Assembly: GCA_048938895.1 (NCBI GenBank)
Contig: JBHLLU010000054.1
Location: 1-25,601, forward strand
DNA length: 25,601 nucleotides
DNA from: Promethearchaeota archaeon
GTDB lineage: Archaea; Asgardarchaeota; Lokiarchaeia; Sigyniarchaeales; SOKP01
Direction of reading: 5' to 3'
The translations under genes were made by a program, and so were the position numbers. The notes below the pieces were generated by a model, which saw only the letters and a list, made by a program, of their open reading frames with translations, was not told where the DNA came from and made no database searches. Below are positions 2,843-6,197 of this stretch, in pieces; the first letter of the stretch is position 1, and the number at the start of each line of letters is the position of its first letter.

Positions 2843-3850
2843 TCAATCAATATATTCAAATTTTGCTCCAATATTATTTGGTTTACATATATAGATATGA
2901 CCTCCCCCATTTTTTTGATTTTTTTGGACTGCTTTTAATAGATCCTCTGCCTCAGAATCTGTTTCTACAATACCAACAACACTAGGACCAAATGAAGACA
3001 TACCATATGCCTTTAAGCCGTAATCCTCAAAAAATCTTAAAAGTTTTTTTACAACCTCATCTTGTAGTTCAATTTCTATTTTCTTAAACCCAAGACTCTG
3101 TATTCTTTTTAATCCCTCACCAAAGCCCTCCAGATTATTTTTTATTAAATTTGGGATAATTTTCATTAGAATTTGATGAGAAACTTCATTTACTTCATCT
3201 CGTGGTATTGGAGCATAATCTTGAAAAACTCTAATTTCCTCATCCCCATATGCCCCCTTCTTTACATTAGGAATAACAAGAACAAATCGCCAGTTATGAG
3301 GGATTTCATGTCTTGAAATAGTTAACGCGGGATTAACAGAACCTGCTGCTGATGATGGTAAGAATGTTTCTTTTTCTTTACCTTTTCCAAATTCATGTCC
3401 TCCATCTAAAATAAACCCTCCAGTTTCATAACCTCTCCAACCTATTCCTGATGTACCACCCCTTTCTACTAGATGTGTTAATTGTTCAGTAGTCAGTTTA
3501 AAGTTCTTTAATTTGACAATAGCATTAGCAATCGCTAGTGAAAGTTGAGTCTTAGATCCTAATCCAACATGGGAAGGAAAATATCTTTTAAGTTTAAAAT
3601 GAAAATTTTTATTACTGATATTAAATGTTTTAAATACTTTTGATGCGATTTCATTAATTACTTCTATTGATTCACGATAATATTTATGGGCTTCAATTTT
3701 AAATTCTTTGGCACTATTTGAAGCTTCAAAAACTACATTAGGACGGTCTAACATAAGACCAATTCCCCCATCGACTCTTCCAGTGTACCCATTCTCATCT
3801 ATTAATGAAAGATGGATCCTACAAGGAGTCGTAATTCTTAAAGAGGTCAT
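2843..3850 (-). CDS. mptG: Beta-ribofuranosylaminobenzene 5'-phosphate (RFAP) synthase, GHMP superfamily
   Basis: TPCRIHLSLID, GRVDGGIG, HVGLGSKTQ, RGGTSGIG, GGFILDGGH, FLPSS, GMSSFGP. Probable start ATG 3850 (MTSLRI). Confidence 0.9.
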   Translation of the reverse strand: MTSLRITTPCRIHLSLIDENGYTGRVDGGIGLMLDRPNVVFEASNSAKEFKIEAHKYYRESIEVINEIASKVFKTFNISNKNFHFKLKRYFPSHVGLGSKTQLSLAIANAIVKLKNFKLTTEQLTHLVERGGTSGIGWRGYETGGFILDGGHEFGKGKEKETFLPSSAAGSVNPALTISRHEIPHNWRFVLVIPNVKKGAYGDEEIRVFQDYAPIPRDEVNEVSHQILMKIIPNLIKNNLEGFGEGLKRIQSLGFKKIEIELQDEVVKKLLRFFEDYGLKAYGMSSFGPSVVGIVETDSEAEDLLKAVQKNQKNGGGHIYICKPNNIGAKFEYID

Positions 3851-3962
3851 TGTACTTTTATGAATAAAAATATTCAACTATAAATTAGAATTTTCAAAAT
3901 AATTTAAATATATTATATACTTTAATTCTTAGATTTTAATGATTTAGAAAGATTTGAGCAAT

Positions 3963-5381
3963 ATGAGCGATCTTGAAGGTTTAACGAGAAATCTAATGAA
4001 AAAAGGGTATTCAGAAAAGAAGATTCTTACAAGAATTGTCCAAGAATATCAAGATTTCAAAAATATAGATAAAAAATCGGCATTGAATTACGCTAGAGCA
4101 ATTTTAGAAGAATGTCAGAAAAGTGACCTTAATCGAGTATCTAATCCCTTTATTAAAAATCTTTTGACTATAAATAGAGCAGATGTTTCGATTGGTAAAC
4201 AAGGAGTAGGATGTAGGGGATCTGGAGATTTTTTTGTTCATAAATTAATTGCAGAATTGTCAGAAACAGAGAAAAGAGCATATTTATCGCCAAGTTCCTT
4301 AGATGATGCTGGTGCTGTGAAAATAAGTGATATTGAAGGTTTTAAAGCTGAAGATGGATTAATTATTGTATCAAAAATGGAAGGTATTCATAGTCGCCTA
4401 AGTGACTTTCCCTTCTTGTGTGGTTTTCACGTAAGTTCATGAAATACGTTTGCATGAAGCGTATCGAGAGCCGCACTACGAGATCTCTATGTAAAAGGAG
4501 CAAAACCCATTTCAATAATGATTGATACCCATCTAGGAGATGATGCAGATGTTGGTAAACTATTTGATTTTATGGCAGGAGTCTCAGCAATTTCAGAATT
4601 AGCAAAAGTACCAATTACTGCTGGTTCAACTCTGCGTATAGGGGGTGATATGGTTATAGGAAACAGATTGGTTGGAGGGATTAGTGCTATTGGAATCTGC
4701 GATCGAGTTCTAGCTCGGAGGAACATTAAAGTGGGGGATAAAATATTAATGACAGAGGGCGCAGGAGGAGGAACAATTACAACAACAGCAATCTATTCTG
4801 GAAATCATCATGTTGTAAATGAAACTGTAAATATCAAATTTCTTGAAGCTTGTGAAAAAATTTTAAGCTCAGATTATATTGACAAGATACATGCTATGTG
4901 TGATGTAACTAATGGTGGTTTAAGAGGGGATTTATATGAAATTAATTATGAAGCGAATTGTGGAGTTCAAATTTATGAGCAAAAAGTTAGGAGTTTAGTT
5001 AACCCTAAAGTTCTTAAAATGCTTAACCAGGTAAATGTTGATTATTTAGGGGTTTCATTAGATGCATTACTCATTTATTGTTCAGATGATATTGCTGCTA
5101 GGATTATTGCTGATTTAAATGAAATAAGTATTAAATGTACTGAAATTGGACTGGTTGATGGTTCAAATCAAGTGAAGATGATATATAGTGAAGGAGAGCA
5201 TGAAACAATTTTACCTCGATTTAGAGAATCTGCCTATACTAAAATCAAACAAGAAGTTGGGGAGGATGAACCCAAATCAAGGGAAGAATTAGAGCATAGA
5301 GTAGAAGAGGCAGCATCACAAGCCTTGAAAAAACGCAGAGAAATAATTGATTTTATAATAAAACAATCATCAAGCGTCTAG
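3963..5381 (+). CDS. PurM/AIR-synthase-related protein, intron-containing: join(3963..4434,4465..5381), 462 aa
   Basis: ORFs 3954..4442 and 4518..5381 are in the same frame, and the gap between them encodes the missing family-like segment RAALRDLYVKGAKPISI. Removing 4435-4464 gives GIHSRLSDFPFLCGFHVTRAALRDLYVKGAKP. Other motifs: GVGCRGSGDF, DDAG, GSTLRIGGDMVIG, DVTNGG. Confidence 0.9.
4435..4464 (+). other. 30-nt archaeal-type (BHB) intron in a protein-coding gene
   Basis: Exon-exon stem 4418-4428 with 4466-4476 (11 bp including G-U); central helix ACGU 4429-4432 with GCGU 4459-4462; 3-nt bulges AAG 4433-4435 and AUC 4463-4465; intron hairpin UUCAUG-AAA-[UACG]-UUU-G-CAUGAA. Contains two in-frame TGA codons. 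Confidence 0.88.
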
Positions 5382-6197
5382 ATTTAAAACCTCGTTCATG
5401 GAGCCTGATCGAAAACCTTCAAGATCAATAGTTATATATGTAAATCCTAATGATTTAAGTTTTTCAGAAATAATTTTAAAATTCTCTTTGGATTGCACTT
5501 TAGGGAAGTCAGATGGCAAGATTTCGATACGTGCTAAATTATTTTCATGTATCCTAACTCGGAGTTGTTTTAGATTAAAAGTATTTCTAATGAACTTTTC
5601 TGCCTTCTTTATCATAATTAATTTATTTTCATTTATAACCTGACCATAGGGAATTCTAGAAGAGAAACAAGCCATAGACGGTTTAGATTGGACTTCCAGA
5701 TCGTAATATTTGGAAATCTCTCTTATTTCTTGTTTATTAATATTATAATCTATATAGGGTGTACAAATTTTAAGTTCAGTTAATGCTTTCATACCAGGTC
5801 TATAATCGGAAAGATCATCTACATTTGAACCATCTAAAATCATATCAAAATTATTAGAGTTTTTGATTTCAATTAATTCATTATACAAACCAGTCTTACA
5901 AATATAGCATCTATTTAATGGATTACAACTAAATTCTTTATCATCTAATGGATTTCTTTCAATAACTAAATGTGGTATGTTATACTTTACAGCAAACTGC
6001 TTAGTTTCTTCAATCTCTTCATCAGGATAGAGAATTGATTTTTCTGTTATTAACAAAGTTTCTTTAGCATATTTATGTGAAAGAAAGGCTAAAAGAGAGC
6101 TATCTACTCCACCTGAAAAAGCAACTAATACCTTTTTTCCTTTTAAAATTGAAATAATATTGTTTAATTTCTTTTCTAAAGTATCTGATAATTCCAT
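5370..6197 (-). CDS. larE: ATP-dependent sacrificial sulfur transferase, LarE family (PP-loop)
   Basis: AFSGGVDS PP-loop, RCYICK, DGSNVDDLSDYRPG, ACFSSRIPYG, LRVRIH, GFRSGSMN. Confidence 0.9.
   Translation of the reverse strand: MELSDTLEKKLNNIISILKGKKVLVAFSGGVDSSLLAFLSHKYAKETLLITEKSILYPDEEIEETKQFAVKYNIPHLVIERNPLDDKEFSCNPLNRCYICKTGLYNELIEIKNSNNFDMILDGSNVDDLSDYRPGMKALTELKICTPYIDYNINKQEIREISKYYDLEVQSKPSMACFSSRIPYGQVINENKLIMIKKAEKFIRNTFNLKQLRVRIHENNLARIEILPSDFPKVQSKENFKIISEKLKSLGFTYITIDLEGFRSGSMNEVLNLDA

Follow-up and report, generated by a model that had tools for sequence, protein, structure and literature searches.

A probable bulge-helix-bulge intron in the coding sequence of an AIR-synthase-family gene of Asgard archaea, with signs of a mosaic history and possible lateral spread

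Watanabe et al. 2002 is said to be the source for the intron of the crenarchaeal cbf5 pre-mRNA. This intron, carried by Desulfurococcales and Sulfolobales, is the established bulge-helix-bulge (BHB) intron of an archaeal coding sequence (Yokobori et al. 2009, PMC2738675). Introns in archaeal protein genes are extremely rare: when a BHB intron in the 5' untranslated region (UTR) of the HVO_1309 mRNA of Haloferax volcanii was verified in vivo and in vitro, cbf5 was given as the only additional one reported by 2020, so that one coding-sequence case was known and one 5'-UTR case was added (Schwarz et al. 2020, PMC7714728), and a structural paper of 2025 on the endonuclease cites the cbf5 papers alone for protein-coding genes (PMC12397907). 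Here, we describe a stretch of 25,601 nucleotides (nt) from a Promethearchaeota archaeon (positions 1 to 25,601 of contig JBHLLU010000054.1, assembly GCA_048938895.1; hereafter the window), in which positions 4435-4464 are interpreted as a 30-nt archaeal BHB intron within the coding sequence of a gene of the PurM/AIR-synthase superfamily. A rough probability of 0.85 is assigned to this reading, in which splicing in vivo is predicted from the sequences. No report of an Asgard mRNA intron, or of an intron in this gene family, was found in the open-access and bioRxiv literature, a search by which a report in a subscription journal could be missed.

The intron of the window would work like the cbf5 intron, although the two are not the same intron. 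Both are of the BHB type, lie inside a coding sequence and have cuts predicted between bulge residues 2 and 3, and both are linked to a hetero-oligomeric endonuclease, are patchily distributed with intron-less relatives, and keep the motif while the inner part varies (PMC2738675). On the contrary, cbf5 encodes a pseudouridine synthase of Crenarchaeota, whereas the host gene here encodes a PurM/AIRS-family enzyme of Asgard archaea; it carries the domains PF00586 and PF02769 and its relatives are Promethearchaeota, which places it outside the cbf5 intron lineage. Moreover, cbf5 introns mostly have unconventional BHB motifs (PMC2738675), whereas the present motif is a strict canonical one with an 11-base-pair (bp) exon-exon helix, and splicing of cbf5 has been demonstrated by cDNA, whereas that of the present intron is predicted. 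The first-pass annotation of the window, a reading of the bare sequence, had already named cbf5 as the established precedent, in agreement with PMC2738675 and PMC7714728. The HVO_1309 intron is likewise an mRNA substrate of the archaeal endonuclease beyond tRNA and rRNA (PMC7714728), but it lies in an untranslated leader, so no protein sequence needs exact joining, whereas the intron of the window lies in a reading frame. With the BHB introns of archaeal tRNA and rRNA it shares motif, enzymes and short length range, but its host is an mRNA whose exon-exon helix is made of codons that must both pair and code, and such changes as occur in this helix are synonymous. In eukaryotes, the HAC1/XBP1 system resembles it in being a spliceosome-independent short intron of a coding mRNA, handled by a structure-recognising endonuclease and a tRNA-pathway ligase or RtcB, with a change in the encoded protein (PMC13149111, PMC8718801); it differs in its endonuclease (IRE1), in using another stem-loop motif and in being regulated by stress.

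The open reading frame (ORF) listing and its translations give two ORFs of the same frame on the + strand (3954-4442 and 4518-5381), which are the two halves of one gene, and two in-frame TGA codons lie between both ORFs (4440-4442 and 4455-4457), just as the first-pass annotation had proposed. The parts of the gene and of the predicted RNA motif, whose helices and bulges are those of the minimum-energy fold, are as follows.

3954..4434, + strand: exon 1 of the AIR-synthase-family gene, from ORF and translation; its last two bases are bases 1 and 2 of bulge 1
4418..4428, + strand: 5' strand of helix h (11 bp, exon 1), pairing with 4466-4476
4429..4432, + strand: 5' strand of helix H (4 bp, exon 1), pairing with 4459-4462
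4433..4435, + strand: bulge 1 (3 nt, unpaired), with the predicted 5' cut between 4434 and 4435
4435..4464, + strand: predicted intron (30 nt), holding both in-frame TGA codons, hairpin h' and the 3' strand of helix H (4459-4462)
4436-4441 with 4453-4458, + strand: hairpin h' (6 bp), plus inner pairs
4463..4465, + strand: bulge 2 (3 nt, unpaired), with the predicted 3' cut between 4464 and 4465
4466..4476, + strand: 3' strand of helix h (exon 2), pairing with 4418-4428
4465..5381, + strand: exon 2, with the remainder of the AIRS N-domain, the AIRS_C domain and the stop codon TAG at 5379-5381

The minimum-energy fold of positions 4418-4476 is the canonical motif hBHBh' (helix h, the BHB core around helix H, helix h'), and it reproduces the one drawn in the first-pass annotation, with its 11-bp stem, 4-bp helix, opposite 3-nt bulges and hairpin. 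Its energy is -21.9 kcal/mol, against -11.8 +/- 2.6 kcal/mol for shuffled sequences (z -3.9; none of 200 shuffles is equally stable), and the structure also forms in a 141-nt context. The UNCG tetraloop that had been described at the tip of the hairpin did not hold up: the loop is predicted to have 5 nt (UACGU), and since its sequence is not conserved among relatives and varies between alleles, such a tetraloop is not part of the element. The order of h, H and bulge on each strand fits the canonical tRNA case, as reasoned from the intron position 37/38. When the rule that EndA cuts between bulge residues 2 and 3 (PMC2738675, section 8) is applied to both bulges, exactly 4435-4464 is excised and the junction codon becomes ACG (Thr). 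Motifs of this strict geometry number 6,947 in the 4.65-Mb genome, and the site of the window is the most stable of them (-21.4 kcal/mol; runner-up -14.1); mirror-image decoys number 7,016 and one of them reaches -19.4, so that a low folding energy does not by itself single out the site. Beyond chance is the coincidence, to the base, of the cut sites predicted by the rule with a 30-nt insertion relative to the orthologues.

That insertion was delimited with two sets of relatives. Orthologues were sought in all six frames of 41 related genomes and turned up in most, and 29 were taken as loci; positions 4435-4464 are absent to the base from 28 of the 29, where one codon stands instead (Thr in 25, Ala in 3). 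In a second collection, of 80 loci, the site is occupied by that single codon (3-nt spacing) in 62, by a 30-nt insert in 15 and by a 29-nt insert in 3, and the spacing in the window equals the single codon plus 30 nt. The alignment with intronless homologues that the first-pass annotation had suggested as a check thus gives a gap that matches the insert exactly, and the H-V-T-R-A junction it had foreseen upon excision carries the Thr found in most intronless orthologues. As a separate observation, the gene occurs twice, both times without the intron, in one genome of the same genus (G056), on contigs C286 and C276 (loci L051 and L056); the two copies stand apart in the gene tree and may stem from a bin of mixed strains or from a true duplication.

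The joined frame corresponds to a known type of protein. Exon 1 could start at TTG 3954, but ATG 3963 is likelier, the orthologues beginning at the residue equivalent to 3963, and exon 1 shares 73% identity with residues 1-161 of an intronless orthologue of 463 residues. The spliced ORF has 462 codons counted from ATG 3963, as the first-pass annotation had it, and 465 when TTG 3954 is taken as the start, a count to which its figure does not apply. Exon 2 matches PF02769 (AIRS_C) with 45.4 bits (cut-off 23.1) and PF00586 (AIRS) with 24.5 bits (cut-off 24), the latter over profile positions 43-97 of 112; because this match begins only at position 43, the break splits the AIRS domain in two. In an intact 463-residue orthologue (P0003), PF02769 and PF00586 score 49 and 29.7 bits, PF00586 covers residues 136-224, and the break maps near residue 162. 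Membership of the host gene in the PurM/AIR-synthase-related superfamily follows from both domains passing their Pfam cut-offs. Its protein reached no NCBIfam equivalog (thiL 53.7 against 184, selD 43.6 against 125, hypE 39.6 against 252), and a ThiL, SelD, HypE or PurL identity was rejected, the scores being far under the curated NCBIfam cut-offs; sequence matches in the PDB are weak (HypE, 2.6e-05). The window's genome (G000; 98.7% complete, 7.5% estimated contamination) has a single orthologue, its other match being a paralogue of 24% identity. Public annotation calls the intact gene 'AIR synthase-related protein' or 'hydrogenase expression/formation protein', and the public protein sets of intron-bearing genomes hold only a C-terminal ORF of 284-287 residues (P0001, P0002, P0040 and P0047; the first two are 96% and 94% identical to exon 2 of the window). 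As public gene calls give the C-terminal ORF alone, the host gene is systematically mis-annotated as truncated.

By DNA search, an insert of 29 or 30 nt was found in 27 of the 154 genomes of the order, belonging to 5 of the 24 genera of one family, and none was seen in 19 genomes of three other families of the order. Its distribution by genus is given below, the window's own genus (10 of 54 genomes) being the first.

g1: 9 of 53 genomes, plus the window's genome
g12: 2 of 5 genomes
g16: 3 of 4 genomes
g21: 4 of 10 genomes
g22: 8 of 42 genomes

Since these 27 genomes were assembled independently, the insert is not an assembly artefact, a possibility that the first-pass annotation had named as one that would undo its reading and that is now excluded. 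The inserts comprise 22 distinct alleles, 18 of 30 nt and four of 29 nt. Unspliced, all 22 are unreadable: 21 hold an in-frame stop and the remaining one, of 29 nt, a frameshift, the four 29-nt alleles all shifting the frame if retained. After the predicted excision, on the contrary, all 22 give the junction A|CG, that is, codon ACG.

What the alleles conserve is the pairing. The canonical motif is the own minimum-energy fold of 17 of the 22 alleles, and 95.8% of 525 cells are paired over the whole set (97.1% in h, 97.7% in H and 93.3% in h'), against 29-53% when the partners are slid by 1-3 columns. Two-sided changes occur at five pairs, including one pair of helix h that passes from GC to AU via synonymous changes on both sides, and none of 500 column shuffles equals the alleles in paired fraction, in counts of double changes or in covariation score. 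In bulge 1, bases 1 and 2 are conserved and base 3 is variable; in bulge 2, bases 1 and 3 are invariant in 22 of 22 alleles. The covariation of the stems across relatives that the first-pass annotation had asked for is therefore clear with the 22 alleles, but it was not with the first 10.

Selection was compared between intron-bearing and intronless genes at dS values of 0.75-1.45. The median ratio of nonsynonymous to synonymous substitution rates (dN/dS) of intron-bearing genes is 0.12 in exon 1 and 0.11 in exon 2, against 0.15 and 0.11 for the corresponding parts of intronless genes of the genus; purifying selection acts on both exons, as strongly as on intronless genes. Third-codon-position identity among intron-bearers peaks at the junction (0.89-0.93, against 0.60 gene-wide), and the top 12 ten-codon segments for this measure all lie there, intronless genes being without such a peak. 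The nine codons right after the intron, which lie ahead of ATG 4518, the earliest in-frame start of the second ORF, specify identical residues in all but one of the 22 alleles, although they vary at synonymous sites. This constraint on post-insert codons fits joined exons, not a pseudogene or two separate proteins.

The enzymes that the proposed splicing calls for have genes in the same genome. Two EndA subunit genes match PF01974 (tRNA_int_endo; cut-off 27), one on contig C83 (101.5 bits) and one on contig C123 (68.1 bits), and an RtcB gene matches PF01139 on contig C5 (566.5 bits), all three scores being well over the Pfam cut-offs; Asgard archaea are described as having an (alpha-beta)2 endonuclease with a broad-specificity loop (PMC5829648). 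In the pre-mRNA, exon 1 (4418-4432) would have two pairing partners, exon 2 (4466-4476) and the intron's 3' end (4459-4462), exposing two 3-nt bulges on opposite strands, 4 bp apart. The heteromeric (alpha-beta)2 endonuclease encoded on C83 and C123 would cut past base 2 of either bulge, and the RtcB encoded on C5 would ligate the exons and probably circularise the intron. The ligated mRNA would then read through junction codon ACG (Thr) into a single polypeptide of 462-465 residues whose AIRS N-domain is intact, while the unspliced mRNA would yield only a 162-residue fragment. Considering (i) the spacing in orthologues, (ii) the genes for the machinery, (iii) the 22 structured alleles, (iv) the 29-nt alleles that shift the frame and (v) the selection on both exons, the BHB, EndA and RtcB interpretation of the first-pass annotation gains support, with splicing itself as its predicted step.

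Other introns of the genome were considered as well. ARAGORN found 24 tRNA genes in G000, 13 of them with introns, though the genome is 98.7% complete; many tRNA genes were probably missed owing to multiple or non-canonical introns, and the count agrees with published descriptions of Asgard tRNA genes as heavily interrupted (PMC11291895; bioRxiv 10.64898/2026.10.13.758758). A genome scan for strict hBHBh' motifs used h of at least 6 bp, H of 4 bp, h' of at least 3 bp and introns of 14-120 nt; it is blind to relaxed motifs, because its criterion for h excludes tRNA introns with the usual 5-bp anticodon stem. Under -18 kcal/mol, the site of the window is alone among sites of true geometry, and one decoy lies there likewise. 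A covariance model built from the 22 alleles found in the genome only the site of the window (82.7 bits); its next match (E 3.07, contig C85) was dismissed as AT-rich sequence at a gene start, and the window gave no match to Rfam or with ARAGORN. As far as seen, the intron is a lone case in G000, where no class of such introns is visible. Next in stability among the strict BHB motifs of this genome comes a G+C-rich 46-nt candidate on contig C83 (+ strand, ~41853, -14.1 kcal/mol), which may belong to an intron-bearing tRNA gene.

Several observations weigh against an intron in the host gene. The minimum-energy fold is non-canonical in 5 of the 22 alleles, the outer pair of helix H is an A-G mismatch in 2 of 22, and three of the 29-nt alleles are short of one h' pair. 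With the first 10, close alleles alone, covariation was not above that of shuffles (80 of 500). Genome-wide, BHB motifs that would restore an ORF by joining two frames of at least 60 codons number 44 against 35 for mirror decoys, which is no excess, and most of the 44 proved on inspection to be AT-rich intergenic spacers. Besides, because helix h is translated, ribosomes on exon 1 would be expected to melt it, so that splicing would have to compete with translation.

Four other explanations of the locus can be set against the intron. The gene could be broken, either as a pseudogene or as a tolerated split gene, with an insert that is never removed and ORFs that are dead or encode two cooperating polypeptides; gene callers do treat the locus in this way, as the C-terminal fragments of 284-287 residues in public sets attest. 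We regard this as very unlikely indeed, since the dN/dS of 0.11-0.12 in both halves matches that of intact genes, the interruption has been kept in 27 genomes and 5 genera without further damage, the codons between insert and first downstream start are still under amino-acid constraint, the break (~162) falls within the PF00586 domain (residues 136-224), and insert and flanks form the most conserved synonymous stretch of the gene, which is unexpected for a dead insert. It is also very unlikely that EndA cuts the motif while the exons stay unjoined or are joined only under some conditions, so that the site would serve processing or regulation instead of being a constitutive intron. BHB elements of mRNAs can have a bearing on regulation, as in Haloferax, where the endonuclease acts on such an element in a 5' UTR and expression is affected (PMC7714728), but here excision restores the orthologous codon in 22 of 22 alleles, the four 29-nt ones included, an RtcB gene is present, and exon 2 is under coding constraint from its first codon; as this constraint is useful only if the exons are joined, joining would take place at least sometimes.

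The two remaining explanations would have the ribosome deal with an unspliced message. By translational bypass, for which gene 60 of phage T4 is the model, it would take off at Val codon GUA 4431-4433 and land 30 nt downstream at GUA 4461-4463. A stable hairpin lies in the gap, landing there would keep the frame even in the 29-nt alleles, and GUA occupies both positions in 19 of 22 alleles (alignment A2). This GUA repeat is, however, an automatic by-product of the near-palindromic helix H, and the matched codons are not universal, the landing codon being GGA in 2 of 22 alleles and the take-off codon GUU in 1 of 22. Bypass would moreover put Ser at the junction, where the 28 intronless orthologues have Thr (25) or Ala (3), and neither the 3-4-3 geometry nor the 11-bp exon-exon helix with its compensatory changes plays a part in bypass; to our knowledge, no archaeal case exists, and we find it scarcely credible here. 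Finally, TGA could be read as an amino acid, through selenocysteine or a variant code, with the insert as a 10-residue insertion of the protein. Both stops in the insert of the window are indeed TGA, and selenocysteine machinery exists in some Asgard archaea (PMC11291895), but TGA terminates 3 of the 24 long ORFs of the window, at least one allele (L135) has TAA, the 10 residues are absent from 28 of 28 and 62 of 62 intronless orthologues, and it is the RNA pairing and not the translation of the insert that is conserved. Recoding is effectively refuted because the four 29-nt alleles shift the frame.

The history of the proposed BHB intron was approached through its flanks. The gene tree does not unite the intron-bearers, and the gene was therefore analysed in segments. 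Within the genus, the exon-1 tree places them together or nearly so, and a single clade is not rejected (p 0.28), while in the exon-2 tree they are scattered, with 8 changes, and a single clade is rejected (p 3.5e-81). The wider set comprised 79 rows, 18 of them intron-bearers, after 2 of 81 rows were dropped as too short and the helix-h columns were removed; single clades of intron-bearers were evaluated there by the approximately unbiased (AU) test, with the following outcome.

Proximal exon sequence: one clade not rejected (AU p 0.47); nearest neighbour an intron-bearer for 16 of 18
Distal 5' exon: one clade rejected (AU p 1.2e-5); nearest neighbour an intron-bearer for 12 of 18
Distal 3' exon: one clade rejected (AU p 8.6e-55; 17 changes for 18 rows); nearest neighbour an intron-bearer for 3 of 18

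Identity profiles show the same pattern along the gene. Where intron-bearers belong to different exon-2 lineages, their identity to one another is 0.84-0.94 between roughly the start of the gene and a point some 100 nt downstream of the intron, and 0.65-0.80 after that; the distal exon 2 of each of them has its best match in an intronless genome. In the window, the shared segment is shorter than in the others.

~4230..4560, + strand: putative recombination or co-conversion tract shared with intron-bearing genomes, with rough limits

Within this tract, the window's genome is 0.82-0.97 identical to intron-bearing genomes, against 0.63-0.79 elsewhere in the gene, and its identity to intronless near relatives dips. 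Compared with a genome from another genus, the gene of the window reaches an identity of 0.97 in the intron and 0.84-0.90 over 4230-4560, but 0.63-0.77 elsewhere.

These profiles lead us to favour, on balance, a history that is not simply vertical, in which homologous recombination would have passed an intron-bearing segment of a few hundred bases between species and genera of one family. Against this secondary claim, mean proximal identity among intron-bearers of the wider set is only modestly raised (0.78 against 0.73), and the trees come from quick searches, on short segments whose recombination violates the tree models and which derive from metagenome bins. Mobile group I introns with co-conversion are known for the same two features, namely intron presence decoupled from the distal history of the host gene, and an identity that peaks at the intron and decays on both sides, both of which are seen in the gene of the window too. 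As the 30-nt intron encodes no homing endonuclease and is no ribozyme, any spread must use DNA exchange and recombination of the host. In this respect the locus differs also from cbf5, for which a single gain with lineage losses and no obvious gene transfer is described (PMC2738675), whereas the flanks in the window point to recombination. The bolder proposal, that this is the first endonuclease-spliced intron in an Asgard protein-coding gene and that it acts as an element in lateral spread, in which homologous recombination, co-converting the flanking exon, has carried an intron-bearing segment of ~300-600 bases among species and between at least 5 genera of one family, is put forward tentatively and at slightly below even odds. 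Active spread would leave the same picture as an old polymorphism that ordinary recombination has reshuffled. Should the intron have spread, some drive or a regulatory benefit of splicing may have favoured it.

Two further observations concern the surroundings of the tract. Among the eight intron-bearing genomes of the genus with enough upstream sequence, the GHMP-kinase-like gene that precedes the host gene in the window is not adjacent in five (loci L035 of G047, L038 of G062, L039 of G053, L040 of G069 and L042 of G059), whose upstream regions are mutually unrelated (identity 0.38-0.49); at these loci, the break in gene order therefore coincides with the 5' end of the shared tract. The neighbour is kept in G000, G024 and G061 and in 8 of 9 intronless genomes, the intronless G046 being without it. 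Separately, the intronless locus L009 (G002) is closer in its distal 5' exon, over the region matching 3960-4230, to the intron-bearing group (0.76-0.80) than to other intronless genomes (0.66-0.73), and G002 may represent a precise intron loss or a donor lineage.

The genes around the interrupted gene in the window, as identified by Pfam matches, are the following.

763-1740: radical SAM/4Fe-4S gene
1733-2437: DUF447 gene
2451-2846: archaeal dihydroneopterin aldolase gene (PF04038)
2843-3877: GHMP-kinase-like gene, upstream neighbour of the interrupted gene
5370-6197: QueC-like PP-loop ATPase gene

This neighbourhood presumably resembles a gene cluster for tetrahydromethanopterin or pterin biosynthesis and may give a clue to what the PurM-family enzyme does. 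In view of its Pfam matches, the GHMP-kinase-like gene may provisionally be labelled 'RFAP synthase'.

If the proposed BHB intron is real, it would be a second coding-sequence intron in archaea, in the lineage closest to eukaryotes, and the tRNA-splicing machinery would serve mRNAs beyond Crenarchaeota. The locus also warns that gene callers split or truncate such intron-bearing genes, and it offers a compact, testable substrate of 59 nt for the EndA and RtcB of Asgard archaea. Its mosaic flanks make a long-standing question, the gain, loss and spread of protein-gene introns in organisms using neither spliceosome nor homing endonuclease for them, testable on existing metagenome data. Were the spread reading to be true, the closest archaeal relatives of eukaryotes would acquire, keep and exchange protein-gene introns removed by EndA and RtcB, an enzyme set of the kind that eukaryotes still use for HAC1/XBP1 mRNA.

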